Assembly (NCBI GenBank): GCA_964650905.1
Contig: CAZYVH010000003.1
Location: 18,230 to 80,073 of the forward strand
DNA: 61,844 nt
DNA from: an uncultured Wenzhouxiangellaceae bacterium
GTDB lineage: Bacteria; Pseudomonadota; Gammaproteobacteria; Xanthomonadales; SZUA-36
Direction: 5' to 3'
Part shown: positions 32,323 to 47,056 of the stretch, one piece after another
Numbering within the stretch: position 1 is the stretch's first letter
Layout of the letters: every line of letters begins with the position of its first letter
Position numbers and translations under genes: made by a program
The notes under the pieces: generated by a model
The model's input: only the letters and a program-made list of their open reading frames with translations
Database searches by the model: none
What the model was told of the DNA's origin: nothing

Positions 32323-34308
32323 ATGCCTTTCGCTAAGCGTAAAAGAGCACCTGCCGCAGCCTTGCAAATCTGTCTGGTAATGCTGTCGGTAGTGTCAGCG
32401 GCGATCGTCGCTGGCTGTGCAGGCACCGCGCAGGGTATCGACAGTTCGGTTTATTCCCGTCTCAAAGCCGGGAAAGCGACCAGCCAGACCACGCCCGAGG
32501 CTGCCGCCCTGGTGATCATTCGCTACCCGGCCATGATCCATGATTATGCTGAAAACCTGTATGTCAGTTCTTTTGCGATCAAGGCCATTGGCGGTGAGGT
32601 CACCACCTCGACGGCAAAATCGCAGGCCGCCAGAATTGCACAATCGGTGGTTGAGAAGTCCAGTTATTACGCGATGTCGCTGTACCGTGAATTAAAAGCT
32701 GAGCTGCCCGAAGCTTCTGTGCTGTTATCACCGCATATCATCGCGTGGGATAAGAAACGCCAGTTGTACACACGCCCGATACTTGCAACAGAACAGGTAC
32801 CCAGCGTCCTGACCATCGACTTTAACGTTTATTCCTATCCCGACATCAACAAGATCATGGATTCGCCACCCGTCACGTTTGGCGACCTGGTGACACCGCT
32901 CATCGTTGTGAAAGGCAACCGCTGGATACAGCCAGCCTTAAATGGCCTGTTGATAGCCAGTCCGCCGCTGGCCAGTTCTGCCTGGCGTCAGGCAACCAGG
33001 GACGGTGAACGGCATTTCAATTCACGTCTTGAGGGCAGGGGAGACGATGAGGTTGCTTCACTGGACTTTATCGCTTTTTTGCGTGAGCGTAACAAAAACA
33101 CCCTGCAGATACCCTTCAAAACGGCAATGGCGGGGAGTAGCGGTTCGTTCGCCATCGAACAATACCCCTTGGAAAAAATACAGATGGACGGTGCGGCCAT
33201 TGCAGCCCTGGAAGATGATGGTTCAGTTGATCCATTCGTCAGCGGTTTTGTTAAAGGCGCGAGCAGACGTATCATCGATATGCTCAGTTCGATCGATCAA
33301 GAGCGGGCGACATTTTTTGCCCGTCAGAGGGCCCTGGGCCGTTTTGATCCCGAGCTTGCAAATGTATTTTTTGTGCAGTCCGGGGACGAGAGTGTACGGG
33401 CACGTCTGCAACTTGCCGAGGCCCTCGTGGGTGCCGAGAGGACGTTTCTTGCGGCGCAATCCGACAGTATTTACGAGGGAACCTATGCGGGCAGTTACGG
33501 TTTAAAAATGCGCAAAATTATCGCAGCGGAATACCGCATGCTTGAGCAACGCCGGCACCTGGCACGCAAACAAAATATAACCACGGCGGTCGCGGCCATC
33601 GCCCTGGCCGGTTCGGTATATGGTACTGCCGTGGCATCGACTTCGGCGGGCGCGGCGAGTGTAGCGGCGGTGTCAGGCGCAGCGCTGGGTGGTTCCGTGT
33701 GGGCCATGCACCAGTCGTTTGAGACCAGGACCGAGTCTGAAGAGGTCGGCAAGTATTTCATGGCCCGCATGGCACCCGCTTTTGACCGACAGATGTCTGT
33801 GCAGATGGAATGGCTAGAGTCAAAAGAAGTGATCACGGCAAAGGGCTTCGCCGAATTCAGAAACAAGACCCTGAGTCTGTACCAGTCACGGGTCAGGACC
33901 ATGCGTATCAGTGGTAGCGAACACTGCCGCTTCAAACACCCGGGGTTAAGGCAAACAGGGCGCTGGTATGGGGTGTGTCAACACGGCCTGGCAAGTGGCC
34001 GGGGATACGGATTGATCAGGAACGGGCAGGGCGACAGCGTGGAATACCTTGGTGAGGCCAGAAAAGGGCTGGCATCCGGTACCGGTGGTATGATCATCAG
34101 GAAAGAGGGTCAGTTGGCTGCAAACTATTATGAGGGCTCATTCAAAAATGGCAGGCTCGACGGAACGGTGCGTATCGAAAAACCCGGTTCGCAACCTCAG
34201 TTGCGGCGTTTTAAAGCGGGTGTTGATGCAGGCAGGGGTAATGCAGATCTTTTACAGAGACTGAGCTTTGTCTCAAGCCAGGCAAGTGACCGGTCACTGA
34301 AGCCGTGA
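32323..34308 (+). CDS. Hypothetical lipoprotein with a Gly/Ala-rich hydrophobic segment and C-terminal MORN-like repeats
   Basis: Signal peptide with lipobox IVAGC. A Gly/Ala/Ser-rich hydrophobic stretch is present (ITTAVAAIALAGSVYGTAVASTSAGAASVAAVSGAALGGSVWAM). The C-terminal repeats (YLGEARKGLASGTGGMI, YYEGSFKNGRLDGTVRI) fit the MORN pattern. Confidence 0.5.
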   Translation: MPFAKRKRAPAAALQICLVMLSVVSAAIVAGCAGTAQGIDSSVYSRLKAGKATSQTTPEAAALVIIRYPAMIHDYAENLYVSSFAIKAIGGEVTTSTAKSQAARIAQSVVEKSSYYAMSLYRELKAELPEASVLLSPHIIAWDKKRQLYTRPILATEQVPSVLTIDFNVYSYPDINKIMDSPPVTFGDLVTPLIVVKGNRWIQPALNGLLIASPPLASSAWRQATRDGERHFNSRLEGRGDDEVASLDFIAFLRERNKNTLQIPFKTAMAGSSGSFAIEQYPLEKIQMDGAAIAALEDDGSVDPFVSGFVKGASRRIIDMLSSIDQERATFFARQRALGRFDPELANVFFVQSGDESVRARLQLAEALVGAERTFLAAQSDSIYEGTYAGSYGLKMRKIIAAEYRMLEQRRHLARKQNITTAVAAIALAGSVYGTAVASTSAGAASVAAVSGAALGGSVWAMHQSFETRTESEEVGKYFMARMAPAFDRQMSVQMEWLESKEVITAKGFAEFRNKTLSLYQSRVRTMRISGSEHCRFKHPGLRQTGRWYGVCQHGLASGRGYGLIRNGQGDSVEYLGEARKGLASGTGGMIIRKEGQLAANYYEGSFKNGRLDGTVRIEKPGSQPQLRRFKAGVDAGRGNADLLQRLSFVSSQASDRSLKP

Positions 34309-34315
34309 TTCGTTC

Positions 34316-34566
34316 GCTAACCCGGACATTTCATCAAGGATCCGGGAATTGCGCTGTAGCTGGCAAAACAGTCTGGCCGATCGTTCGAATAAGCATAGCG
34401 GTAGCTATGGTGTGAGAAGGATCGACCGAAATGTGAAGCCAGATGCTGTGCAAAACCGGATAGGACAAACTGTCTTTTTTGAAAAATACTACAAACATGC
34501 ATAATCATTTGTTTTCATGAAAATTTATCATTTTATCGTCCGCCTTGGTGAAATGTCCGGGCTAAC
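34316..34566. repeat. MITE-like element, copy C, with 24-nt imperfect terminal inverted repeats
   Basis: The left end is gctaacccggacatttcatcaagg (34316-34339). The right end is ccttggtgaaatgtccgggctaac (34543-34566). They match as inverted repeats at 21/24 positions by hand. The interior is AT-rich, and the right-end sequence also ends copy A (10321-10340). Confidence 0.5.
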
Positions 34567-35326
34567 TACCATGGTCTTTGTTGCCGGCGTGTTGCTGACG
34601 CCGCTGTTGTGCGCCGGTAGCATCAATTTCGTAACAATCGAGACGCTTCCACCCGGTGAACAATACCGGCAACTCAGTCTGGTGCTGATGGTTGCCGCCG
34701 GGGCAGACCCGGCATTGGTTGACAGCCTGCTGCATGAATCCTCACAAAAAGAAGCGGATCAAGACTCAAGCTTTGACCCCGATGTCTATAAAACACCGCT
34801 CACCCGCATTGTCGACCAGCAAACAATGTTGAGCGGTGCAGCAAGGTTGTTGCGCTTTGCCAATCGCTCCCAGAAAGAGATTCGCGCCAAGCTGAGCGCC
34901 ATCGAAGTTGCAAACCCGGTCCTTATCAGTATGCTGGACGGCCAGGCGGTCAGCGAAGATGCAATCATCATCCGCAATGCAATCGCTGACAGCATCAGTT
35001 ACGCCGGTCTGGAAGCTAAAACACTTGCCCATTTACTGGAGGCTTACAGGACACGCACACTGCGTCTTCGAAACGAAATGGAGTTTGCCAGTTTTAGTGC
35101 GGAACTTGACCGCATCACCGCCGAATCCATCCGCGCCGTCGGTGGTCAGTCGGATGCTTACCAGCGTATGTTTGATGACGAGGTGGTTGCCAAGGGTTTT
35201 AAACGGCAAATCGAGACGGCGGATTATATTTACAAGCGCGATAAGGCGTTTGATAAACACGCCGCCGAGATGACCGAGGAAATCATCAAGAATGTGGTTG
35301 AGTCGCAAAGCGAAGTTAATCACTAA
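34517..35326 (+). CDS. Hypothetical protein (start uncertain: 34517, 34553 or 34571)
   Basis: The ORF is 269 aa and predicted mostly helical. Its 5-prime end lies inside repeat copy C. A hydrophobic N-terminal segment is present (MVFVAGVLLTPLLCAGS). No family was recognised. Confidence 0.4.
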   Translation: MKIYHFIVRLGEMSGLTTMVFVAGVLLTPLLCAGSINFVTIETLPPGEQYRQLSLVLMVAAGADPALVDSLLHESSQKEADQDSSFDPDVYKTPLTRIVDQQTMLSGAARLLRFANRSQKEIRAKLSAIEVANPVLISMLDGQAVSEDAIIIRNAIADSISYAGLEAKTLAHLLEAYRTRTLRLRNEMEFASFSAELDRITAESIRAVGGQSDAYQRMFDDEVVAKGFKRQIETADYIYKRDKAFDKHAAEMTEEIIKNVVESQSEVNH

Positions 35327-35562: not shown

Positions 35563-36821
35563 CCGTCACCGTCTCCATCGGGCGGCTTGTCGGGTGACCC
35601 AGTGTCGGGTGTATTGCTGGCGGAACTGGCGGGTACACTGACACCCCGGGCATTGACCAGGTCCTTGATCGAAAGCGTATCCTTTGACCTGACCCTAAAC
35701 TCGCTGGAATCCTTTACTGTCTGCTGTTCAGATGACTCATGCTCCCGGGCAGTGGAAGACGAAGCTTGCTGCTCGGATGATTCGCTTTCCTGGGCTGTGG
35801 AAGATGAAACCTGCTGCTCAGATGATTCGCTTTCCTGGGCTGCGGCGGGCGAGGCCTGCTGCTCAGATGATTCGTTTTCCCGGGCTTCGTGTGATGAAGT
35901 CTGCTGGCTGGCTGATTGAGCTTGCTGTGTTGCAGACGATACTGCCTGCTGGTTGGCTGATTGGGCTTGCTGTGCTGCTGAAGATGTTGCCTGTTGGCTG
36001 GTCGATTGGGCAGCTTGTACCTTTGAGGAGGTGGCTTGCGGGTTGTTTGACGGCCTGTTTTGCGTCTCGCCCGGTGCCGCACCAGACGCACCCGCCATTC
36101 GGTTTTTCTGCAGGAACTGAAGCGCGCTCTGGGATGTACCGGCGGTGCTGGGCTCATCGGATTCATGGGCCGATGGCGAATAGCTGTCGTCTGCGTCCTG
36201 CTGCATGTCATTTTGCCCATCCTGTTGTGAGGATTGTTGCGCGACTGTTTGTGACTGCTTGGCGCCTTTTTGTCCAATTTGACCAGACACGGCGTCACCC
36301 GTTGGTGATGCCTGTCCTTTTTCACCAGCTTTTGCAGCCCGATCATTTGCGGCGTTGGCACGGGCGTAGTTTTCCGCTTCCCTTTGGTTGTATTTTTCCA
36401 GCAGTTCATCCCAGGCCGCCGCTTCCTGATTCTGTAAAGGACGATTATTGAGCGCTGCTTCGCTGGGTACGTACGGGTGTTTGATCCTGGCGTCCGAGGG
36501 GACCCACTGGTCACTCTCAAGGATTATCTCCCGCAACTGATTGCGCAGGTGTTTTTGTGACGCCTGGGGCAAGGCTTCAATTTTTTGCGGACCCGTTGGG
36601 GCCTCATAGGCAGCCAAGGGTAGTGTACTTCTTTTGATCCGGTCGTCTTTCAGTTCCATAAAGCGCCGGTAATTATCCTCGCTGATTTCCACTTCCTGGC
36701 CTGTTTTCTGCGTGTCCTCATACGCCGGGTCTTCAGCGTCCTGGGCAAAAACCGGGGTAAAAAGTTCAGACGCAGCAAAAACAAGCAATGTCGTGAATAC
36801 GATTCTTCTCGTCATGCTCAT
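35559..36821 (-). CDS. Secreted or anchored Ser/Glu/Gln-rich low-complexity repeat protein
   Basis: The probable start is ATG 36821 (MSMTRRIVFTTLLVFAASELFTPVFAQD), 4 nt after the kinase stop. The C-terminal half is built from 15-aa repeats (AQESESSEQQxSSST and QQAxSSAxQQAQSAx). It is the last gene of the minus-strand operon. Confidence 0.6.
   Translation of the reverse strand: MSMTRRIVFTTLLVFAASELFTPVFAQDAEDPAYEDTQKTGQEVEISEDNYRRFMELKDDRIKRSTLPLAAYEAPTGPQKIEALPQASQKHLRNQLREIILESDQWVPSDARIKHPYVPSEAALNNRPLQNQEAAAWDELLEKYNQREAENYARANAANDRAAKAGEKGQASPTGDAVSGQIGQKGAKQSQTVAQQSSQQDGQNDMQQDADDSYSPSAHESDEPSTAGTSQSALQFLQKNRMAGASGAAPGETQNRPSNNPQATSSKVQAAQSTSQQATSSAAQQAQSANQQAVSSATQQAQSASQQTSSHEARENESSEQQASPAAAQESESSEQQVSSSTAQESESSEQQASSSTAREHESSEQQTVKDSSEFRVRSKDTLSIKDLVNARGVSVPASSASNTPDTGSPDKPPDGDGDG
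35706..36020 (-). repeat. In-frame 45-nt tandem repeats inside the Ser/Glu/Gln-rich gene
   Basis: Units at 35751-35795, 35796-35840 and 35841-35885 are near-identical. More diverged 45-nt units extend on both sides. They generate long shadow ORFs in other frames. Confidence 0.7.
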
Positions 36822-36825
36822 TAGC

Positions 36826-39249
36826 TTACTCCCTGATCGACCTGACGACACGAAAACCGGTAAAATCATTACGGTCGCCATTTTTCAGGTTAAAACGGGC
36901 CGGTAACCGTATGTCACGTGTTCCGGTCAACCATGAACCGCCACGCGTCATGTGCGAACTGCACAACCCCTGGCCCCAGGCCTTGCCATCTGAAGGCGCG
37001 TCGAGATAGGAGAGGTTCATACAATCAGCCGTCCATTCGGCGACATTACCGATGACATCGTAAAGACCAAAAGCATTGGCCATAAAGGTGCCGACCAGCG
37101 CCGTTCCAACTGCCAAGGTGTCAGCACAGGCGGCGTGTTGCCAGCGGAAGCTGGTCTCACTCCCGGCAATGTTGGCGAAGCGGCACAGACCGGCCGGGGT
37201 TCCGCCCAGCCATTCCCCGGTCTCCCCGGCTCGCGCGAAATATTCCCACTCACTTTCACTCGGAAGACGGTAACTTTGACCGGTTTTATCACTCAGCCAG
37301 CGCACGTACTCACCGGCGTCATTCCAGGAAACCATGATCACCGGGTGTTGGCCTCGACCCCAGCCATTGTCGTCGGGCCGGGTTGTGCAGCCCCCGGCGT
37401 CAACACAGGCGTCCCATTCTTGTAGTGTGACCTCGAAGATAGCGACTGCGAACGGTGCATTGATACTGATCATACGACGGGGTTTTTCCAGACCGAGCGC
37501 CAGCGGGGAGGATTCTGCAGAACCCTGCCAGTAACTGCCACTGGGAACCACGATCATTTGTGGGCACGTGTTGCAGTCACTGAAAGATTTACCCGGTCTT
37601 AATGTCAGCTGGTCGAGATGTTGCAGGGCGGAGCTGACACTAGACCCCCTCGGAAAGGCATCAACATACGCCTGATAAGCAGCCTTTGTGTCCAGCTTTA
37701 GTGCGCTGGCAAAAGCATTTGCGTCATCACGCTGGTCCTTGAGAAGGCGGTGGATGCGTCCGGCTTCCTCGATGTGCTGACCGGCCGGCCAGGCATGGAT
37801 GTAATTATCCAGCGATGCCAGCGTACGCTTGTCAATCGCCGCCTGCCAGGCATCCTGCTCCTGGCGGATTTTTGCCAAACGCTCTCGTTCCTGTTTCGCC
37901 TCTCTCTTTTTGAGTGCATCGATGTGCTGCATGGCCTCGCTCTGGTGCAGTCCATTGGGGAATTGATCGAGGTAATCTTCAAAAGCGGCTACCGTGCCTT
38001 CGGTATTTAATTCCTGCCAGGTCTTATCATCAAGCACCTCCAGTTGAACCCGGGCCTGTGCGACATAGACCGACGCCGGAAAATCCTGCATGAAACGCCG
38101 GTACGACAAGGTTGTGTCGGCCTCCAGCGCGGCATGCCAGCGGCTGGTCTCCTCCACAGCAGGTCTGGCGGTGGCTGACGGAATACTTTCCGTATTCTCG
38201 GGCGTCGGCGACAGCGCAGCACCCGGGGGGCTCTTTTCTGTCAGCAAAAATAGAGCAATAGTGACCATGACCAGAAGCAACACCCCGAGTAACACACGCG
38301 GCAACCATTCCTTGCCTTCGCGCGGATCGCTGGCAATGGATTTGCCACCCGGCACCGAGCGCCGCCAGTCGAGGCTCTTGAATGTTTTCTGCCATTGCCT
38401 GACGTCCATCGGCCTGTCCTGCGGCAGCAGATACAGGCCCTGCCCGATGACAGTGGCAATGCTTGCAAATCGAGTGTCTGTCAACAATTCGCCAGGCGCT
38501 ATCAACGGGTCCGCCTCGCCGGCGTCGAGTGCTTTTTGCCGGGCGCTTGCCGGTGGTGGAATTTTCCCGCTCACGCAGCGGTAGAGGGTGGCTGCCAGAC
38601 CATAAATATCCGTCCACGGACCAATACGCCCATCGACCGCGGATTGCTCCAGTGCTGCGTAACCCTCGCTGCCCCGCGGAAAGCGCTCAGATCGATCGAG
38701 CGGTGAGGCGGCGATACCGAAATCCAGCAGAATGGGGCCGTGCTCGTCGCCCATGTAGATGTTGGCGGGCTTGATGTCCTGGTGGATGATCCCGTGCTCG
38801 TGGATGTAGGTGAGTCCGTCCATCATTGCCAGCATCAGGCTGCTTGTTTGCTTAGGGTCCAGGATGTCCGTGGTTTGCAGGATTTCGCTCAGGGGCTTGC
38901 CGGGGTAATAGGGCATCAGGAAGTAAGCGGTGCCATTGGCTTCAAAATAGCGAAGTATCCTGACGATATTGGGATGCTCCAGTTCAGCCAGCAGGCGGCC
39001 TTCGGTCAGAAAACGTTCAAGACCCTCTTTAAATGACTTCCCGGATGCCGGGTTCCGGGCAGACAGCGTTCCGTCACCGCGCCGGGAAACGTGCTTAGCC
39101 GGCAGGTATTCCTTGAGTGCAAACTGTGTTCCGATCGCAGTATCTGATACCTGGTAGGTGACACCGTTTGCGCCGCTGCCGAGCACGGCATTGACCTGCA
39201 GGTCGCGTATGAATGCCCCGGGCGGCAAGGAGGAAGGTATTGTACTCAC
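36826..39249 (-). CDS. Ser/Thr protein kinase, TM, four helical repeats, FGE-sulfatase-like domain
   Basis: The GTG start forms a GTGA overlap with the upstream stop. Hanks kinase motifs are GSGANG, FALKEY, HQDIKPAN, DFG and a YAALE segment at the position where an APE-type motif is expected. The TM helix is VLLGVLLLVMVTIALFLL. Four xYxxYxxxFPxGxxxxxAxxxL repeats follow. The C-terminal FGE-sulfatase pattern includes WEYFARAG, YDVIGNVAEWT, RGGSW and FRVVRS. Confidence 0.85.
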   Translation of the reverse strand: MSTIPSSLPPGAFIRDLQVNAVLGSGANGVTYQVSDTAIGTQFALKEYLPAKHVSRRGDGTLSARNPASGKSFKEGLERFLTEGRLLAELEHPNIVRILRYFEANGTAYFLMPYYPGKPLSEILQTTDILDPKQTSSLMLAMMDGLTYIHEHGIIHQDIKPANIYMGDEHGPILLDFGIAASPLDRSERFPRGSEGYAALEQSAVDGRIGPWTDIYGLAATLYRCVSGKIPPPASARQKALDAGEADPLIAPGELLTDTRFASIATVIGQGLYLLPQDRPMDVRQWQKTFKSLDWRRSVPGGKSIASDPREGKEWLPRVLLGVLLLVMVTIALFLLTEKSPPGAALSPTPENTESIPSATARPAVEETSRWHAALEADTTLSYRRFMQDFPASVYVAQARVQLEVLDDKTWQELNTEGTVAAFEDYLDQFPNGLHQSEAMQHIDALKKREAKQERERLAKIRQEQDAWQAAIDKRTLASLDNYIHAWPAGQHIEEAGRIHRLLKDQRDDANAFASALKLDTKAAYQAYVDAFPRGSSVSSALQHLDQLTLRPGKSFSDCNTCPQMIVVPSGSYWQGSAESSPLALGLEKPRRMISINAPFAVAIFEVTLQEWDACVDAGGCTTRPDDNGWGRGQHPVIMVSWNDAGEYVRWLSDKTGQSYRLPSESEWEYFARAGETGEWLGGTPAGLCRFANIAGSETSFRWQHAACADTLAVGTALVGTFMANAFGLYDVIGNVAEWTADCMNLSYLDAPSDGKAWGQGLCSSHMTRGGSWLTGTRDIRLPARFNLKNGDRNDFTGFRVVRSIRE

Positions 39250-40724
39250 TCCTCTACCCCTGGTTTCATATGTATCCTCAGCCGAATGAGCACATCCCCC
39301 AGCAGGATTTCATCGTCCGGCGAGACAAACAGGATTTCGCCGGGCAGACAGGGGATCGTGCTGATAAATGTGCCGTTACTGGATCCCAGATCGGTAAGTG
39401 TCAGTGTCCCCGGCCGACCTTGCAAACGCGCGTGCGCACGGCTGATTGCAGCCGACTGCAGCCTGAGACCGGCTTCACCCCTGCCAATAACAACATCGAT
39501 GGGTCCGGCTTCAATACCGCAGTAACGTTGCACCGCTTCTCCGTTGGCCAATATCCCTTCGAGCAGGAGCATACCGGAGTACACGGCTGGCAGATCCTCG
39601 ATGGCGGGTATTTCGGGTTCATCAAATGACGCAGTGGACACACGAGGGTGGGAGATTGCCGGGCTGGTGGCAAGCTCCGTGGTAGCGGGTTCCTCGGTGT
39701 GCGTATGGCCGTCTTGTATCAATGTGGGCGTGCTCACCATCTTAGGTCTGAGCCACCAGATGACGAAGGCCAGTATCGGTATTAAGCCCAACAGCAGCCA
39801 GACGGGGTCCTCATTGTTGCTTCCCGGGGCGGCTTGCCGAGCGGCGCTGCCCACCGGTTTGTGGCTGTCTTGAGTTGGCACCTCCTCAGTTGATCCACCT
39901 TGACTTGACCCTGCGATGGGCCGCTCCGGCAGCGCCTCAACACCAGAATCTGCAGGCCCGCTTTGATCAACCATTACCTTTGCATGTTCAGCTTGCTGGC
40001 TGATTTTTGGGGCGGTAACGGTTTCCTTGAGGTTGCTTTGTTCGGGGCTGCCGCAGATGCTATGCTCATAATCGATGTTCATATCGTCAAGCACACGGGC
40101 GATTTTTTTTGCATCGAGTAGGCCGATTGCAAGCTCGCCTTGCTGGTCATCCATCGTCGTCCCGGGTCTGAACCCCGCCAGGTAACCGCAACGGTCAAAC
40201 AGTGCCCCATTGACGGCGGGTAATGGCGTTTCTTTGGATAGAGGTGTCGATCCGGACCCGTCGCCGCTGGTGAACCGGGCTGGTAACCACAGGGGCGCTG
40301 TGCCCTTTGCAATCTTTTCAGCTGCTGGAAAGGCCGCGAAACGCAGCGTGTCTTCCAGCACGGCACCATTGTCTGCAAGTACGACAGCGGGTCGTTGTAA
40401 ACCTTTGACCATCAGGACCGCCAGACCATCGGTGCTAGAACGACGGATGGTTTTTGCCGGGCGGCCGTTGCGGATGATGTCAGTGCCACCATCGAGGACC
40501 ACGATCTCATCACCCTGCGCGACAAAATCAGCGGGCACCATGACCATGCCATCAGCGGAGATCACCACCCCGGTGGCAGGTTTGACAAAATCGTGCGCTA
40601 CCAGTTTGAGTACCAGTACCACCGATGCGGGCATCTGTGCCATGCACGGCGGGGCCAAAAGCAGGCAGATACAGCACAAAAACACGCCGCAATGGTCCGG
40701 TCTGCGCCAGGGTACAGCGTGCAT
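39246..40724 (-). CDS. Exported trypsin-like (degenerate) domain, TM, cytoplasmic FHA domain protein
   Basis: The signal-like N-terminus is VFLCCICLLLAPPCMAQ. A Trypsin_2-like pattern is present (ATGVVISADGMVMVPADFV, DGLAVLMVKG, AVNGALFDRCGYLAGF). The TM helix is VWLLLGLIPILAFVIWWL. The C-terminal FHA motifs are IGRG..., ISRAHARL and SSNGTFI. Its start overlaps the upstream stop (TGATG). Confidence 0.7.
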   Translation of the reverse strand: MHAVPWRRPDHCGVFLCCICLLLAPPCMAQMPASVVLVLKLVAHDFVKPATGVVISADGMVMVPADFVAQGDEIVVLDGGTDIIRNGRPAKTIRRSSTDGLAVLMVKGLQRPAVVLADNGAVLEDTLRFAAFPAAEKIAKGTAPLWLPARFTSGDGSGSTPLSKETPLPAVNGALFDRCGYLAGFRPGTTMDDQQGELAIGLLDAKKIARVLDDMNIDYEHSICGSPEQSNLKETVTAPKISQQAEHAKVMVDQSGPADSGVEALPERPIAGSSQGGSTEEVPTQDSHKPVGSAARQAAPGSNNEDPVWLLLGLIPILAFVIWWLRPKMVSTPTLIQDGHTHTEEPATTELATSPAISHPRVSTASFDEPEIPAIEDLPAVYSGMLLLEGILANGEAVQRYCGIEAGPIDVVIGRGEAGLRLQSAAISRAHARLQGRPGTLTLTDLGSSNGTFISTIPCLPGEILFVSPDDEILLGDVLIRLRIHMKPGVEE

Positions 40725-41467
40725 CAGGCGGGATAAAGCCTGTTGATCAGGTTGTCGAGACAGTACTGGCCAGAGCGATTGAGGGTCTTTTCTTCCCGGC
40801 CCTGAATCAGGTTCTGTAAAAATACCAGGATGGCCGCCATCACCAACGCCAGCAGTGTCGTACTGAATGCAACACCGAGCCGCTCGGTAACCTGGTAGAG
40901 CATATCCGGGTTGTCCACGTTGGCGCGGTCGCCGGCGTAGTTGAGCGCCATCATGATACCGATGACGGTGCCGATGAAACCGAGTGTTGGCAGCAGCCAG
41001 ATAATGTAACGCACGATGTTGTAGCGCAGGTCCAGTTCGTGCAAAAACAGCTCGAGACTTGAATTGAGCAGCGCGTTGGTCTGGTCAACCGAGCGGCTCA
41101 GGTTGAAGTTGAGTACACACCGCTCGATCAGACGTGGCAGAAAACACGTGGTGCGATACATGCTGCTGCGTACTTTCTGGTATATCGGTGTGATGTCGTC
41201 ACCGGGTCTTAAAACGGTTTCATCGTCGAGTGGCAGGTAACCCCGTTCAAACTGGCTTTCCTCGAGACGCCCGCTACGCCAACGGATCGATAATTCACCC
41301 AGGCCGGCAAAAAAGGTCAGCCACAGGACATTTTGCAGCGTGAAGGGCCAGGAACCTCGATTAATATCCAGCATGATAGTCGCCGCCTGGGGTGGCAGGA
41401 CCCTGGCCAGCAGGGCGATGACCAGCACCCCCGCGAGTAAACTTATCAGCAATGTCAGATAGCGCAT
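40724..41467 (-). CDS. MotA/TolQ/ExbB proton-channel family protein
   Basis: The C-terminal signature is LPTLGFIGTVIGIMMAL...LGVAFSTTLLALVMAAILVF, preceded by an N-terminal TM helix. ATG at 41467 is preferred over the TTG at 41506 in the ORF track. Confidence 0.75.
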   Translation of the reverse strand: MRYLTLLISLLAGVLVIALLARVLPPQAATIMLDINRGSWPFTLQNVLWLTFFAGLGELSIRWRSGRLEESQFERGYLPLDDETVLRPGDDITPIYQKVRSSMYRTTCFLPRLIERCVLNFNLSRSVDQTNALLNSSLELFLHELDLRYNIVRYIIWLLPTLGFIGTVIGIMMALNYAGDRANVDNPDMLYQVTERLGVAFSTTLLALVMAAILVFLQNLIQGREEKTLNRSGQYCLDNLINRLYPA

Positions 41468-41486
41468 GGTGTCATTAATCCGTTTG

Positions 41487-41933
41487 TCAGGGTTGATCTT
41501 CTTCAATTTTCCCGGTCAGGGGGTTTCGTTTTGGGTTGCTCAGACCCGGCCCGGGTTCGGTAAAGCCCGTCATTGAGCGTACGGGGGTATTTCCGCTACG
41601 TAATGAAAAATGTTTTTCACCCAGCCTGAGGTCAGTGTGTTTAGCAAACACCGAAGTCAGGCGTTCCAGTGGTATCTCGACCTCACCCATGCGAATCAGA
41701 TCGCCGGTACACAAGCTGACCCTGCGGACACGGATCCATGCTCCGTTACGCTGCAAAAAAATACCGTTCCTGGAATCAGCGTCCACTACCCAGACACGTC
41801 CGTCCGTGGAGCGTTCAATAGACGCGTGGACACGCGACACGGTCGGGTGATCCAGCACCAGGTCACAGGCGGCGTTCCGGCCACAGCTTTTACTGATCAA
41901 TTCAAATAACTCCTTGTGGTTATCATACCGCAC
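41487..41933 (-). CDS. Stand-alone FHA-domain protein
   Basis: 148 aa with a GTG start. FHA motifs are CGRNAACDLVL, VSRVHASI and SRNGIFL. Confidence 0.8.
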   Translation of the reverse strand: MRYDNHKELFELISKSCGRNAACDLVLDHPTVSRVHASIERSTDGRVWVVDADSRNGIFLQRNGAWIRVRRVSLCTGDLIRMGEVEIPLERLTSVFAKHTDLRLGEKHFSLRSGNTPVRSMTGFTEPGPGLSNPKRNPLTGKIEEDQP

Positions 41934-41969: not shown

Positions 41970-42908
41970 TCATTGTGCAAGCGCCAGGAAACCACCGGAA
42001 TTACCCCGCGCGAGGTTTTGCATAAACTCGACCGTGCCCTTGTATTTGAAATAATCACCGATGGTCACCGTGTGGATTTCCTTGTGTGAGGTATTGGACA
42101 TCGTGATGTTCTGGGCCAGCGAGCGCGGCGGCAGATTGCCGTTATAGACCGGATTGGGGAGACCATCGCTGAGCAGGATGATAGCTTCCGACGGACCCTT
42201 GAAAGCCACCTGGAAAGCGTCCTTGAGCGACGAGGCACCGGCAAACTGACCCTTCAGCTGGCTGATAAAGTGCATTGCCCCGGTGCGATTCTGGTGGCTC
42301 ATGACCACCAGCGAACCATCGGCTGGCCAACGGTGATAGCTCGGGCCCGAATCCAGTTGCTGAAAACCGAGGATACCAAATTCATAACCAGGCCTGAGTG
42401 AATCCATGGCCCGCGCGACGGTCCGCCAGACCAGTTCATCGTATTGAGCTAAATACTTGTTCATGTCGATCATGAACAGGATGCGGGTTTTGTCGGTTTT
42501 CAGACCGAGAAACCTGAAGGTCACCAGCTTGCTGCCGGTTTTCTTCCGCGTTTCCACTGGTGAAGACGGTGGGGGTGGTGGCTGGTCCTTGTGTGCCTGC
42601 AAACGGGCATGGATGGCCCGGATTTCACTGGAAACAATATCCTGCTCGGCGATGAGCTCCCGCTGCCGGGTGCTCGCCGCCGCAATGGCCTGGCGGGCCT
42701 TACTGATACCGGCCACCGTATCATCCAGCTCGGCCTCGGTTTGATTGGTCTCTGATTCGATATAATCCAAGTGCTTGACCAGTTGGGCCTCCTTTTGGTA
42801 ATCCGGCATCATGATGATCGTGATGATGATGAAAGCACCCATGGCAGAGGCAAACAGATCAATGGCTGAGAGCGAGAACACACCGAAACTGCGCAGCCGT
42901 GTCCTCAT
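41970..42908 (-). CDS. MotB/ExbD-like TM helix, coiled coil, vWA domain protein (degenerate MIDAS)
   Basis: The N-terminal helix SAIDLFASAMGAFIIITIIMMP carries a membrane-edge Asp (codon 42858-42860). A heptad-rich linker and a Pro-rich hinge follow. The vWA strands are ILFMIDMNKYL (DxNxY, 42453-42467), FGILGF, AIILLSDG and IHTVTIG. An ATGA overlap links it to the upstream paralogue. Confidence 0.75.
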   Translation of the reverse strand: MRTRLRSFGVFSLSAIDLFASAMGAFIIITIIMMPDYQKEAQLVKHLDYIESETNQTEAELDDTVAGISKARQAIAAASTRQRELIAEQDIVSSEIRAIHARLQAHKDQPPPPPSSPVETRKKTGSKLVTFRFLGLKTDKTRILFMIDMNKYLAQYDELVWRTVARAMDSLRPGYEFGILGFQQLDSGPSYHRWPADGSLVVMSHQNRTGAMHFISQLKGQFAGASSLKDAFQVAFKGPSEAIILLSDGLPNPVYNGNLPPRSLAQNITMSNTSHKEIHTVTIGDYFKYKGTVEFMQNLARGNSGGFLALAQ

Positions 42909-43891
42909 CCAGAGACACCTACAAAATCACCATTGTTGAGCCGGGCCAGGGTCTGCAGGAAGAGCACCAGATTACGGTTATGGGTGTAGTCGCCGATGGC
43001 GACGGTGTGCAATTCGGTTTGCCTGAACTGGTTCAGACGGGTGATCTCCTGCAGGATATACCCCGGCTGTGTATTGGGCTCACCGTCACTCATCAGGATC
43101 ACGGCGCTGGCGGGGTATTCCAGTGCGGCCTGCAGTGCATAATGGGTCGGGGTTGAACCGACAAAGCGATGCACCAGCGAGCGTGCGAAAACCGATGCCT
43201 GGTAAAGGTTTTCCTTGTTGGCAGTAGCCAGCGTCTTGTTACCGGGAAAAGTCCAGAGGACGGGCTGCGGGTTACCCTGGTAACCGATGATCGCAAACCG
43301 GTTGCTTTCGTCCAGTGGTTTCAGCAATTCCAGGACCGTCTGTATCATCAGGTTCTCGTAACGGGTCATACTGCCCGACATGTCAATAACGATGACAAAA
43401 CTCTTTGCATGGGTCGCCAGACCGAGTATCGAAAATTCCACGCCGTGGGTAATGGCCTTGGGCTGTGGCTCCGGTTTGACGACCTTAAGCGGCTCGGCCA
43501 CTGGTGTGGGCAGGTCCGCCAGTTGCCGTCTGCTGTCAGCCAACTGCTTTTTCAAGCGGGCGATACGTGTCTCGACACCCTGGTTGGATACATTGGCGTC
43601 CAGCAGTTCGCGTTGCAACTGCTCCTTCTCCGCCAGCCGCTCCTCAAGCTGGCCGGATGCAAGGCTGCGTTTTTGCATGACGTCCCGTGTCTTTGCAAAA
43701 GCCTCGTCGGGGTCGGCGTGTTGATAGTAGGGAAACAGCAGCATAACGAGCAGGATAAATGCACCCAGGGCAGAGGCGAACAGGTCCACGGCGGACGTCG
43801 AGAATACAGCAGTGTCTCTGTCAGGTATTTTCACAGGTTTCCGGGAATCAGCCGTTTGGAAGTTGACACCAGGGACGGCGATTATGTTCAA
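42905..43891 (-). CDS. MotB/ExbD-like TM helix, coiled coil, vWA domain protein (intact MIDAS)
   Basis: TTG start with AAGGA 5 nt upstream. The helix is SAVDLFASALGAFILLVMLLFP, with the Asp codon at 43784-43786. The vWA domain has FVIVIDMSGSM (DxSxS, 43370-43384), GSTPTHYAL, VILMSDGEPN and LHTVAIG. Confidence 0.8.
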   Translation of the reverse strand: MNIIAVPGVNFQTADSRKPVKIPDRDTAVFSTSAVDLFASALGAFILLVMLLFPYYQHADPDEAFAKTRDVMQKRSLASGQLEERLAEKEQLQRELLDANVSNQGVETRIARLKKQLADSRRQLADLPTPVAEPLKVVKPEPQPKAITHGVEFSILGLATHAKSFVIVIDMSGSMTRYENLMIQTVLELLKPLDESNRFAIIGYQGNPQPVLWTFPGNKTLATANKENLYQASVFARSLVHRFVGSTPTHYALQAALEYPASAVILMSDGEPNTQPGYILQEITRLNQFRQTELHTVAIGDYTHNRNLVLFLQTLARLNNGDFVGVSG

Positions 43892-43924: not shown

Positions 43925-46900
43925 ATGAGGTTCAGGATAATCAAACAGGTCTTAATCAATCTACTGCTTTTTGCCATTGTCTTGACGGGCGCAATACAGT
44001 CTCAGTGGGCACTGGCACTGGCACAGCCTGCTGAAGCACCACCCAGCCAGGAGTATTTTGTCCGCCAGCAGGGTGGTGAGGCGCTGCTGATCAGGATCAG
44101 TGCCTTTGAGGCAGAAATCGAATCACGTGTCTATGATCCACAAAAGTCGCTGTTATCAGTGTCCGCCTTACCCGGCAACCGGATTGCTCCGCTATTCCAG
44201 TTTATTGATGCAACCCACAGCCAGCGACAACTGGATATTCAGGTTAGCTCAAAACGCAGTACCGGCAATAGTAAATTTGAGATCGAGTTTACCCGGCTCA
44301 GGGACTGGGACGAAAGAAGTGGTCTGCTGGTGCGTGCCTATCACTTACTCGCTTACGCCATGCAGGCCCAACTGGGGCCGGGTTCAACTGACTGGAGTGT
44401 CAATGTCAGCAGTCTGCTGGGCGCGAGCAAAATTTTTGCGCAGTACGGCATGCGCGAACAACGTTTGTGGTCCACTTACCTGGCTGCCTACCTCGTCTAT
44501 TACCGACTCGGTGATTATCCGTTCGCTGCCAGGCTCAACGACACAGTACTCGAGGAAACCAATGCGCCACACTGGCAGGAAATCAGACTTGCCGCGCTGC
44601 AACTTAAAGCAGATATACTCATCAAACTCAGCGACAGCAATGTCATGCAGGATTCCGGAAAGCGTACAGACCCTGTACAGGCAGCGTTATTCGCTGCGGC
44701 GCAGTTCGCCCAATCCACAGGGTTTGGCTTTGAACAGGCCAGCGCAGTCTACACAAGCGGTCTGGTCTACGCCGGCCAGGGGCTTTTCGCGCAGGCCTCG
44801 GCACAGTACCAGAACGCTCTGAAGCTGGCACAACCTCTCGCAGACGACCTTTTTTTAAAAGAGATCAGGGAAAGTGTGGTTGCCGTCAATGCCAGGCAGG
44901 GCAATGCCCCGGCATCCGGTCAGGTGCTGCAACAGATTGAGACGCAACTGCTGCGTGAAGGCGGTGGCGATGAACTGGCACTCAACCTGTTGCAACAAGG
45001 CGATCTGCTGCTTGGCACCCACCGCTGGGCAGAGGCCATCGAGGTACTCACACAGGCACTTGAACAACAGAACGACAGTTCGATCCGCAGTCGTGCAAAT
45101 TTGGCCCTTGCAACAGCCAGTTATGAAGACGGTGACCCTGATGCAGCTTTGGCGTACCTGGATGCTGCCGGTGTCAGCGACGACCTGCGGCCAGCGAGAA
45201 ATGGCAAACGCGATCTGGACGTGGCTGCGGGGCTGGAAATCAAGGCGGCGATCTATCGTGCCCGGGGCGAGTATGAGCACATGCAAAGCGTACGCCAGGT
45301 GCAGCACGACTGGTTGCCAACGGGCGTGGATCAAGCCCGGTATTTTTATCAGCGGGGTCTGGATGCGCTGGCCAGGGGGGGCGGTAAGCGGGTGCAGGCA
45401 GTGGCTTTTTTCCGAAAAAGCTACCAGGCAAAGGGTTATGCACAGCCACCCGGGTTACGACTGCTCGCACAAATGCAGCTGTGTGTGCTGGGGGCGGAAA
45501 AAGCAGGTCTGTGTACACCCGGCAACGCTTTGCGTGCCTACCAGAAGCTGGTTTCCAACCGTATCCCCCGGCAGGTAGTTGAGGCCCGGTTTCTGCGCGC
45601 CCGTTACCAGGCCAGACACGGACAGAGAAAGGCCGCTATGGCGATTATGGAACAGGCGGTCGACGATATTCATTTTTACCGTCAGATGATGCCCGGCATG
45701 CTGGGAGCCTGGTACTGGCAGCACCGGAATGATCTGTTTACCGCTTACCTTGATCTGGCGAGTACCACTACAACTTCAGCAGGTAGTAACGGGGAACGAG
45801 ATTTCGAATCACTACTGGCGCTGAGTCGGATCAGGTTTGCTGCACGTCCGGTCAGTAGCGAGCGCCTGTCGAGCACTGACCTTGCAGCAGGTGATTCGCT
45901 ACGGCAACGGTTTGCAATGCTCGCAAACAGCACTGCGGGTGAAGAGACCGCAGAGCTGATCACCGGCCTTCAACGGGATGTTGACAGTCTGCAGACAGCC
46001 TTTAATCACACATTCGCTTTTCTAAGCCGCTCGGGTTTAAAGAAAGCCCTGGATGGTCTTGCAAGGAGCGAAGCCGTCTTGACCTACCACCTTACACGAG
46101 ATGAAGCACTGGCCTGGCTGGGAAAAAACGGCCAGGTCCGGCGCTTTGTCATCGCACACCCTGATCGGCTTTTTACAAAGCTGCAACGGGCCCATGACGA
46201 TCTCCCGGCCACTTCGGGCCCGGCATTTGACGTGATGATGCAGGAGATCGGTGAACAACTGCTCAAACCACTGGCCGGCAGCTTGCCTGAAACGATATAT
46301 TTTGTTCCCGAAGGTTTGCTGACAGGTTTTCCCGTAGACGCACTGCGCCTGGGGCAGGAATACCTCATCGAACACCACCGGCTGGTCAATGTGCTGGCAT
46401 TCCCATCTGATCCACGGCCAATAGCCAGCCTGCACACAACCGCACCACAACGTGTTTTCATTGCCGGTTCCCCACAGGACTACTCGGCCTGGGTCGAATC
46501 CCGCCTGGCAACATCCCCGGAAATCCAGGCGGTTGCCGAGCAGTTCATCGGACCGGGTTTGCATATCGTGCAGGGGAGAGCTCTGCTACGTGACGAATTT
46601 GATGACACCCGCCTGCAACGCGCTGAACTGGTGCACCTGTCCATGCCCGCTGTGATGGATTTTGATCAGCGGCAACGCTCCGGACTGATGTTGTCCGAGC
46701 CACGACGCGATGCAGGCCGGGAGATGCTGTCATTGACAGATATCAGCGCGAACCGCCTGCAGGCCAGGCTGGTGTTTCTTAGTGCGAGCCGTATCCAGGG
46801 CGAGATCGACGCGACATTTGCAGGCCAGCCAGCCCTGGTGACGGACTACCTGGCGACCGGTGCGCACGCTATTATTGCCGGTTCCTGGCGACCGGCCAGT

Positions 46901-47056
46901 CAGCTGGCGACAGAACTGGTGACGGGTTTCTACCGCTCACTGGCGGTATCAAACGATATCACAGGTGCAATGACCCAAAGCAAGCGGGACTATTTACGCA
47001 AGTACAACAACGACGGCTCTCGCAGCTGGGCTGCGTACCAGCTTTATATCAGGTAG
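43925..47056 (+). CDS. Exported TPR-repeat protein with a C-terminal CHAT (caspase-like) domain
   Basis: 1043 aa. The N-terminal hydrophobic signal or anchor is LINLLLFAIVLTGAIQSQWALALA. The central helical-repeat region is TPR-like. The C-terminal CHAT pattern includes IYFVPEGLLTGFPVDAL, VFIAGSP, ELVHLSMPA, RLVFLSASRIQG and AIIAGSW. Confidence 0.8.
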   Translation: MRFRIIKQVLINLLLFAIVLTGAIQSQWALALAQPAEAPPSQEYFVRQQGGEALLIRISAFEAEIESRVYDPQKSLLSVSALPGNRIAPLFQFIDATHSQRQLDIQVSSKRSTGNSKFEIEFTRLRDWDERSGLLVRAYHLLAYAMQAQLGPGSTDWSVNVSSLLGASKIFAQYGMREQRLWSTYLAAYLVYYRLGDYPFAARLNDTVLEETNAPHWQEIRLAALQLKADILIKLSDSNVMQDSGKRTDPVQAALFAAAQFAQSTGFGFEQASAVYTSGLVYAGQGLFAQASAQYQNALKLAQPLADDLFLKEIRESVVAVNARQGNAPASGQVLQQIETQLLREGGGDELALNLLQQGDLLLGTHRWAEAIEVLTQALEQQNDSSIRSRANLALATASYEDGDPDAALAYLDAAGVSDDLRPARNGKRDLDVAAGLEIKAAIYRARGEYEHMQSVRQVQHDWLPTGVDQARYFYQRGLDALARGGGKRVQAVAFFRKSYQAKGYAQPPGLRLLAQMQLCVLGAEKAGLCTPGNALRAYQKLVSNRIPRQVVEARFLRARYQARHGQRKAAMAIMEQAVDDIHFYRQMMPGMLGAWYWQHRNDLFTAYLDLASTTTTSAGSNGERDFESLLALSRIRFAARPVSSERLSSTDLAAGDSLRQRFAMLANSTAGEETAELITGLQRDVDSLQTAFNHTFAFLSRSGLKKALDGLARSEAVLTYHLTRDEALAWLGKNGQVRRFVIAHPDRLFTKLQRAHDDLPATSGPAFDVMMQEIGEQLLKPLAGSLPETIYFVPEGLLTGFPVDALRLGQEYLIEHHRLVNVLAFPSDPRPIASLHTTAPQRVFIAGSPQDYSAWVESRLATSPEIQAVAEQFIGPGLHIVQGRALLRDEFDDTRLQRAELVHLSMPAVMDFDQRQRSGLMLSEPRRDAGREMLSLTDISANRLQARLVFLSASRIQGEIDATFAGQPALVTDYLATGAHAIIAGSWRPASQLATELVTGFYRSLAVSNDITGAMTQSKRDYLRKYNNDGSRSWAAYQLYIR

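Follow-up and report, generated by a model that had tools for sequence, protein, structure and literature searches.

Ion-driven 5:2 motors (MotAB, ExbBD, TolQR, GldLM, and ZorAB) form a small set of machines that carry the energy of the inner membrane to the cell envelope. Here, we describe a gene cluster from an uncultured Wenzhouxiangellaceae bacterium (assembly GCA_964650905.1, contig CAZYVH010000003.1, positions 18,230 to 80,073 of the forward strand), in which two tandem genes for membrane-tethered von Willebrand factor A (vWA) proteins, vWA1 and vWA2, lie close to a gene of the MotA/TolQ/ExbB family. The whole stretch of 61,844 nucleotides is referred to as the window, and positions are counted from its first letter. 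We consider it likely that vWA1 and vWA2 are the inner, B-type (trans-pore-helix) subunits of a 5:2 motor driven by the proton-motive force, with an outer pentamer formed by the MotA/TolQ/ExbB-family protein encoded at 40724-41467.

The closest described systems are transmembrane (TM)-tethered "TPH-vWA" proteins linked to orphan tolQ-like genes, which are "predominantly found in heterologous pairs" in Proteobacteria and Verrucomicrobia, and whose AlphaFold 3 (AF3) models, with Idiomarina loihiensis as the exemplar, seat them in a pentamer next to a threonine ring (PMC12204202; Mol Biol Evol 2025; 42(6): msaf138, section 8, Fig. 4c-d). The cluster resembles them in its TM-tethered vWA proteins, the aspartate (Asp) in their helix, a linked tolQ-like gene without tolR or exbD, the heterologous pairing, and the threonine ring of the channel; it is likewise proteobacterial, and the proposed role, a dimeric inner component of a 5:2 motor, is the same. 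The match rests on the published description, and all defining features stated there are found here. Judging from its sequence, the locus is most likely a new member of this class, which was predicted computationally in 2025. A first-pass annotation of the window had supposed that such an arrangement was undescribed; it is in fact proposed in that paper for TolQ-linked vWA proteins, the only work describing a motor-vWA link that we found in the literature on systems combining MotA/ExbB and vWA proteins with FHA, PP2C, or kinase proteins.

Two tandem vWA genes with different adhesion sites

The vWA pair comprises the following features, where ORF is open reading frame and MIDAS is metal-ion-dependent adhesion site.

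42905-43891, minus strand: vWA1 ORF, 328 aa from a TTG; translation checked; Pfam VWA_3, 9.5e-11
41970-42908, minus strand: vWA2 ORF, 312 aa; translation checked
43784-43786, minus strand: vWA1 TM aspartate codon, GAC; D36 in the 328-aa ORF, equal to D17 in the 309-aa form
42858-42860, minus strand: vWA2 TM aspartate codon, GAT; D17
about 43721-43816, minus strand: vWA1 TM helix, carrying the Asp
about 43514-43711, minus strand: vWA1 stalk helix
about 42908-43435, minus strand: vWA1 vWA domain with intact MIDAS
43370-43384, minus strand: vWA1 MIDAS loop 1, DMSGS, by translation
42453-42467, minus strand: vWA2 altered MIDAS loop 1, DMNKY, by translation

The two ORFs share a 4-nt overlap (ATGA). 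vWA2 has no match in Pfam; it has the same layout as vWA1, to which it is linked by 31% identity over an end-to-end alignment (BLASTP, E 5e-38). Both paralogs consist of a short basic tail, a single Asp-bearing TM helix, a stalk helix of ~65 residues, a Pro-rich linker, and a vWA domain, and the helix sequences SAVDLFASALGAFILL and SAIDLFASAMGAFIII are found in the two proteins by translation. Given the basic N-terminal tails and the positive-inside rule, the stalks and heads of both proteins would be periplasmic.

The true start of vWA1 is probably the GTG at 43834, which gives the 309-aa form, rather than the TTG at 43891; we favor it because most orthologs are 309 aa long. The TTG is preceded by a good Shine-Dalgarno sequence (AAGGA), yet it leaves just 33 bp to a divergent CHAT gene. 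This ambiguity has no effect on the finding.

An AlphaFold2 (AF2) model of vWA1, built from a 45-sequence alignment, has a mean predicted local distance difference test score (pLDDT) of 88.6. In the numbering of the 309-aa form, it consists of a TM helix (7-38), a single stalk helix of 66 residues (42-107), a disordered, Pro-rich segment (108-133), and a very confident alpha/beta domain (134-309). Foldseek relates this domain to MIDAS-bearing vWA/I domains, namely those of ITIH1, CaV alpha2delta-1, CMG2/ANTXR, and integrin alpha-I, with E-values down to 4e-10. In the best heptad register, 63% (vWA1) and 68% (vWA2) of the a/d positions are hydrophobic, vs. 35% and 42% overall; the heptad count is a crude test, and its result is compatible with a coiled coil.

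By sequence, DMSGS, GSTPT, and SDG make up a complete MIDAS in vWA1. In vWA2, the equivalent motifs read DMNKY, GASSL, and SDG, and the DxSxS/Thr set that coordinates the metal is not preserved. The first-pass annotation had described tandem paralogs with an Asp helix, a coiled coil, and a vWA domain, intact at the MIDAS in the upstream copy and degenerate in the downstream one; translation bears out every coordinate, and the difference between the copies proves to be systematic in the orthologs.

A channel gene of the TolQ/ExbB type

The channel gene is found two genes downstream of the vWA pair, in the same co-directional string.

40724-41506, minus strand: channel subunit of the MotA/TolQ/ExbB family; Pfam PF01618, E 1.4e-13
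40967-40969, minus strand: channel threonine T167, from the alignment with TolQ/ExbB/MotA; codon checked
40856-40858, minus strand: channel threonine T204, from the same alignment; codon checked

Its product is probably a protein of 247 aa that starts at an ATG at 41467. When this is aligned with Escherichia coli TolQ, ExbB, and MotA, residues P160, G163, V168, G170, A200, and T204 are invariant and T167 is near-invariant. T167 and T204 fall within two TolQ/ExbB motifs, GTVWGI and ATA, which hold the pore threonines of these proteins (T145/T178 in TolQ and T148/T181 in ExbB). The AF2 model of the channel (pLDDT 85.6, predicted template modeling score 0.80) has four predicted TM helices, and the top 50 Foldseek matches in the PDB are all A-subunits, with ExbB/TolQ first, followed by PomA, MotA, and ZorA.

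No conventional inner subunit accompanies this channel: phmmer queries with E. coli MotB, ExbD, and TolR find none in the window (E < 0.01), and the cluster proteins have no match to ExbD, TolR, MotB_plug, or OmpA models in Pfam and NCBIfam.

Conservation of the TM aspartate and of the MIDAS difference

A word-index search with vWA1 returns 1216 matches. Among 1.84 billion cluster representatives at 50% identity, 781 matches have E <= 1e-3 and 62 have E <= 1e-30; nearly all are ~300 aa long and align end to end. The TM Asp is invariant in 100 of 100 diverse full-length family members, where the consensus around it is (I/V)F-S-x-S-A-(L/I)-D-L-F-A-S-A-(M/L)-G-A-F. The TM helix is also the best-conserved segment, with a pairwise column identity of 0.62 (vWA domain, 0.32; stalk, 0.14), and its small residues S33, A34, A39, S40, A41, G43, and A44 are conserved. 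A passive anchor would not be expected to be the best-conserved part of a protein.

Scanning a single genome for each GTDB species identifies 423 relatives, and all results on related loci refer to the best 80 of these. They belong to Wenzhouxiangellaceae/'Lysobacterales'-type marine and sediment metagenome-assembled genomes (MAGs), plus Elongatibacter sediminis CH-27. Cultured carriers are E. sediminis CH-27, which has the whole locus, and Marinihelvus fidelis, which has at least the channel protein. A tblastn search with vWA1 against a plasmid collection returns no match.

In the related loci, the TM Asp is kept in all 76 vWA1 and all 75 vWA2 orthologs. Conservation of this residue had been singled out beforehand as a point on which a stator-like role could fail, and with 151 of 151 it is invariant. 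The MIDAS difference is nearly as regular. Specifically, vWA1 orthologs have DxSGS in 75 of 76 loci, and those of vWA2 have D-(M/L)-N-x-(Y/F) in 74 of 75, the remaining one reading DLHKR; none has DxSxS. Across the 100 family members, DxSxS, G-x-T-P-T, and (S/T)DG are kept in ~75%, and family-wide the members with a degenerate MIDAS fall into a number of distinct clades (DMNKY-type, DGSAR-type, and others). A DGSAR-type gene directly follows an intact-MIDAS paralog, as does a DVSVR-type gene in locus L088 (L and P numbers are our labels for loci and contigs), and vWA pairs are also present in L088, L091, L093, and the P0243 contig. The distance between the TM Asp and the MIDAS Asp covaries between lineages (134/131, 129/127, 127/125, 122/119, and 145/137 for vWA1/vWA2), which is what a shared, paired stalk predicts.

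Synteny in close and distant relatives

The gene order of the window, with all genes from vWA1 onward co-directional, is vWA1, vWA2, a small FHA gene, the MotA-like gene, a pseudo-trypsin-TM-FHA gene, a kinase-FGE gene, and a repeat protein gene. This order, with a divergent CHAT gene ahead of vWA1, is almost invariant in the related loci. The channel gene is better conserved than any other in the cluster (68-88% identity), and it follows the vWA pair in 58 of the 63 close loci whose sequence reaches far enough downstream. In distant contexts (25-40% identity, including a Rhodospirillaceae MAG), a MotA_ExbB gene lies at most 3 genes from an Asp-TM-vWA gene in 7 of 7 cases. FHA proteins accompany the motor genes in every context examined, and in the distant contexts a trypsin-TM-FHA protein, a PP2C phosphatase, and a Ser/Thr kinase are usually retained as well.

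Some genomes carry a second copy of the cluster. Second copies are found at L072-L076 and L083 (e.g. L075 8966-16800), in the same genomes as L030, L032, L025, and L026. Their vWA pair is 49% identical to that of the window and the second head reads DLN(R/G)F; in L075, the sole second copy inspected for it, a PP2C gene is located upstream. Because the second copies have no MotA-like gene within 10 kb, they suggest that a single channel pentamer serves alternative inner dimers.

Other neighbors differ among lineages. In one subclade, a canonical operon with the order ExbB(long)-ExbB(short)-ExbD is located close to the cluster, some 3-6 kb upstream of vWA1 and, in loci that have the CHAT gene, on the far side of it (L031, L034, L037, L041-L045, L047, L050, L052-L054, L058, L059, L061, L063, L066, L077, L078, and L082). 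Because this operon supplies A-subunits of its own and the window lacks it, it probably represents unrelated synteny. The distant module is found beside a TPR-secretin gene in L087 (6768-8693, the Rhodospirillaceae MAG) and beside an nSTAND1 NTPase gene in L092 (2536-7872), which hints at different outputs in different lineages.

A candidate motor with an asymmetric inner dimer

In the motor we propose, the short basic tails of vWA1 and vWA2 would lie in the cytoplasm and their Asp helices would be inserted in the pore of the pentamer, next to the conserved threonines, and proton flow via the Asp/Thr sites would turn or shift the inner dimer. The ~65-residue stalk helices would probably pair as a coiled coil, and this stalk of about 10 nm, together with the flexible Pro-rich linker, would let the vWA heads reach the periplasm, where they would take the place of the MotB peptidoglycan-binding domain or of the ExbD/TolR periplasmic domain. 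Only the vWA1 head would grip a presumed ligand, by a carboxylate held through the MIDAS metal ion. Given the complete MIDAS of vWA1 and the conserved D-M-N-x-Y/F of vWA2, the dimer would be asymmetric by construction. AF3 work on TolQ-linked vWA pairs reached the same model independently (PMC12204202).

The first-pass annotation had also suggested a heterodimeric B-subunit inside a MotA-like pentamer, with the vWA head in the place of the peptidoglycan-binding domain of MotB. The exchange of heads is supported. The B-subunit proposal gains from the MotA-family gene in the operon, the lack of a MotB-, ExbD-, or TolR-like gene in the window, the invariant Asp, and the MIDAS difference; the heterodimer itself is a step that we infer.

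Several observations weigh against this assignment. The helix had been likened to those of MotB, ExbD, and TolR, and this resemblance is not significant by profile search or by hhalign: a profile of the N-terminal helix (45 sequences) retrieves no B-subunit from all PDB sequences with hmmsearch at E <= 10, and a Pfam scan of the 45 N-termini, also at E <= 10, finds no B-subunit model and no MotB_plug. By hhalign, the E. coli MotB N-terminus is matched with a probability of 2.7%, with the Asp one residue out of register, and the E. coli TolR and ExbD N-termini give nothing; the helix has no significant sequence similarity to MotB, ExbD, TolR, or ZorB. The MotB sequence used for that comparison, ADFMTAMMAFF, is correct, and the resemblance is no evidence of homology. 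The Foldseek E-values of the channel model are modest (about 4e-3). In addition, L091 has two intact-MIDAS copies, and only one vWA gene is present in L087, L089, L090, and L092. Finally, five loci contain the vWA pair with the FHA, pseudo-trypsin-FHA, kinase, and repeat protein genes and have no MotA-like gene; a search with a hidden Markov model of the family finds no diverged MotA-like gene within 10 kb on either side, and the genomes of these five loci also hold the full system.

A lack of helix similarity had been named in the first-pass annotation as a refuting outcome. As a control, the helices of E. coli MotB and ExbD/TolR fail to match each other in the same kind of test; because these are undisputed functional equivalents, the test has no power to discriminate, and the negative result does not refute a B-subunit role. 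The loci with single or doubly intact vWA genes indicate that the intact/degenerate heterodimer is a feature of the lineage and not a requirement of the class, and the five loci without a MotA-like gene indicate that adjacency to MotA is not obligatory.

Signaling and other genes of the cluster

The remaining genes of the cluster are listed below.

41487-41933, minus strand: small cytoplasmic FHA protein, 148 aa; Pfam FHA, 3.9e-16; position kept in related loci
39246-40724, minus strand: signal peptide, periplasmic trypsin-like domain, TM segment, and cytoplasmic FHA domain, 492 aa; Pfam FHA, 7.2e-10, and Trypsin_2, 0.028; syntenic
36826-39249, minus strand: receptor Ser/Thr kinase, 807 aa; Pfam Pkinase, 6.3e-31, and FGE-sulfatase, 2.5e-47; syntenic, also in distant L091
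35559-36881, minus strand: secreted S/Q/E-rich repeat protein, last gene; signal peptide; position kept in related loci
43925-47056, plus strand: divergent TPR-CHAT (caspase-like) protein; Pfam CHAT, 5.2e-25, and TPR_16, 1.2e-9; signal-peptide-like N-terminus

The kinase has a cytoplasmic kinase domain, which keeps the catalytic Lys, HxD, and DFG motifs by translation, followed by a TM segment and a periplasmic FGE-sulfatase (C-type-lectin-like) domain. Both FHA domains of the window keep the GR, SxxH, and NG motifs for phosphothreonine binding, also by translation. The trypsin-like domain lacks the catalytic His and Ser, with VPADF and VNGALF vs. TNHHV and GNSGGP in distant L089, L090, and L092; on these motifs it is probably a pseudo-protease, and probably a binding module. 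At the C-terminus of the small FHA proteins is an acidic tail, conserved between the window (NPKRNPLTGKIEEDQP) and L075 (RPRRNPSTGDIEEDD; 12422-12904), which could be a docking peptide.

Under the proposed scheme, the receptor kinase, with its periplasmic FGE-sulfatase-type domain, and the FHA proteins would act, through a presumed phospho-target, on the cytoplasmic face of the motor, and this phospho-signaling module, to which relatives also contribute a PP2C, would probably gate the motor or read it out. A precedent exists in GltG-AglR, for which docking of an FHA domain to a TolQ-like pentamer has been predicted (PMC11761067). That a kinase/FHA/pseudo-protease module travels with the motor points to regulated, rather than constitutive, force generation.

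The repeat protein has no Pfam match. It contains ~6-7 tandem repeats of 15 aa (45-bp period, 35721-36011), and it is possible that it serves as an acidic ligand for the MIDAS head. In most of the 80 related loci, the CHAT gene adjoins the vWA pair; it is missing in the subclade L057-L066 and in all distant loci. The flanks of the cluster are housekeeping genes, with aconitase, HflD-like, MnmA, and ClpA genes on one side and genes for a thiamine pyrophosphate enzyme, a flavin adenine dinucleotide oxidase, and an ABC-F protein on the other, and there is no GC anomaly at the cluster. Two ORFs between ClpA and the cluster, at 32323-34308 (plus strand, 661 aa) and 34517-35326 (plus strand, 269 aa), have no Pfam match at E <= 1e-5 and seemingly lie outside the conserved cluster.

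Alternative explanations

The strongest competing explanation keeps the 5:2 vWA motor and changes its presumed physiological role, from mechanical work to a Zorya-like surveillance of envelope damage or phage. In such a system, engagement or loss of a ligand by the vWA heads would change the state of the motor, the kinase and FHA proteins would relay this change, and the effector would be either the TPR-CHAT protease or the kinase. CHAT/caspase-like, FGE-sulfatase ("FGS"), trypsin-like, and Ser/Thr kinase domains are all typical of bacterial conflict systems (Kaur et al. 2020, PMC7159879), the kinase matches the PD-T4-6 and mad6 defense kinase models of PADLOC, and the channel weakly matches ZorA2 (E 5.5e-6, PADLOC). 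Furthermore, one distant locus adjoins the nSTAND1 NTPase, and the genes that flank the cluster vary among relatives. However, a PADLOC scan of the eight cluster proteins finds no system-specific model beyond generic kinase and MotA cores, and the cluster is chromosomal, with housekeeping flanks, an even GC content, and no match in plasmid records. Both sequence and gene order are strongly conserved over a family- to order-level clade, unlike in patchy defense islands, and an entire subclade, like all the distant loci, lacks the candidate CHAT effector. We therefore regard a surveillance function as unlikely, without dismissing it.

Alternatively, vWA1 and vWA2 could be ordinary anchored periplasmic adhesins or scaffolds of the BatA/BatB type, in which the helix is only an anchor, or a contact for the kinase or the FHA-TM protein, and the MotA-like protein has another partner. 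The first-pass annotation had itself named this alternative, with vWA proteins unlinked to MotA. Many vWA proteins have a single N-terminal anchor, the two proteins here have no sequence similarity to known B-subunits, and copies of the pair without MotA exist. Against this, the anchor is the most conserved part and bears an invariant, buried Asp, the eight cluster proteins include no MoxR, DUF58, or BatC/D product (Pfam/NCBIfam), the window offers the MotA-like protein no other candidate partner, and a MotA gene co-occurs with the vWA genes in 58/63 close and 7/7 distant contexts. We reject this explanation on gene content and motifs, and consider it very improbable.

On the same grounds we reject, as scarcely tenable, a role as TolA/TonB-like force transducers outside the pentamer, equivalent to the first vWA family of PMC12204202: such vWA transducers share the layout of TM helix, extended linker, and globular head, but the defining marks of that family are a TM-helix SHLS motif, in which the His is essential, and the presence of separate tolR-like genes (PMC12204202), whereas the helix here has no His or SHLS and an invariant Asp instead, and no tolR-like gene is present in the window.

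Comparison with known systems

The inner-subunit assignment is best judged against the motors that have been described. Like MotB/PomB, vWA1 and vWA2 would be single-pass proteins with the N-terminus inside and the C-terminus outside, with a TM helix that bears an essential-type Asp close to its cytoplasmic end, a MotA/ExbB-family partner, and a periplasmic head on a linker. They differ in having no MotB_plug or OmpA-like domain and a vWA head on a ~65-residue stalk helix, and the fold of the channel is nearer to ExbB/TolQ than to MotA. The fold and the conserved P, G, and T residues of the channel are closest to TolQ/ExbB, and an inner-helix Asp is also shared with ExbD/TolR; by contrast, there is no ExbD-family domain (PF02472) and no TonB/TolA partner here, and the channel has an extra N-terminal TM helix.

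Zorya ZorAB is similar as a 5:2 MotAB-like motor outside motility with cytoplasmic downstream components, and the channel has weak ZorA2 matches over its TM core. However, the long cytoplasmic tail of ZorA contrasts with a channel of only 247 aa here, and the peptidoglycan-binding domain of ZorB with a vWA head, and the cluster has no ZorC, ZorD, or ZorE genes and no match to ZorB, ZorC, or ZorD models. The Agl-Glt machinery (AglRQS + GltG) combines a TolQ-like motor with a single-pass FHA protein predicted on the cytoplasmic face of the pentamer, and has a vWA adhesin, CglB, at its far end (PMC11761067). It differs in its TolR-like inner subunits (AglQ/S) and in carrying the vWA domain on a separate outer-membrane lipoprotein, whereas in the present cluster the vWA domain and the inner subunit form one protein. 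Conversely, the conflict systems with vWA, FGS, and trypsin domains have no MotA/ExbB (Kaur et al. 2020, PMC7159879).

Inner subunits with integrin-like vWA heads would add a new output to 5:2 motors, namely a metal-dependent grip on a periplasmic or outer-membrane ligand. The locus also names the residues to mutate: the two Asp codons, T167/T204 of the channel, and the MIDAS serines. More tentatively, the cluster may represent a new regulatory grade of 5:2 motor, in which an obligatorily asymmetric inner dimer (a MIDAS clamp plus a non-MIDAS head) would be switched or read out by a receptor-kinase/FHA/PP2C module and MotA-less pairs would compete for a shared pentamer; if true, no stator-type motor known before would combine eukaryote-like phospho-control with an exchange of alternative inner dimers.

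With respect to the TPH-vWA proteins, the cluster extends the class in two observed features, an altered second MIDAS throughout the clade and a conserved module of Ser/Thr kinase, FHA, and trypsin-like proteins, with PP2C in relatives. The text of the TPH-vWA paper does not mention MIDAS, a metal ion, a kinase, a phosphatase, or forkhead/FHA (PMC12204202), while the MIDAS state and the FHA, kinase, and phosphatase partners are documented here; because it is silent on them, we count the MIDAS difference, the phospho-module, and the MotA-less second pairs as additions to what has been described.

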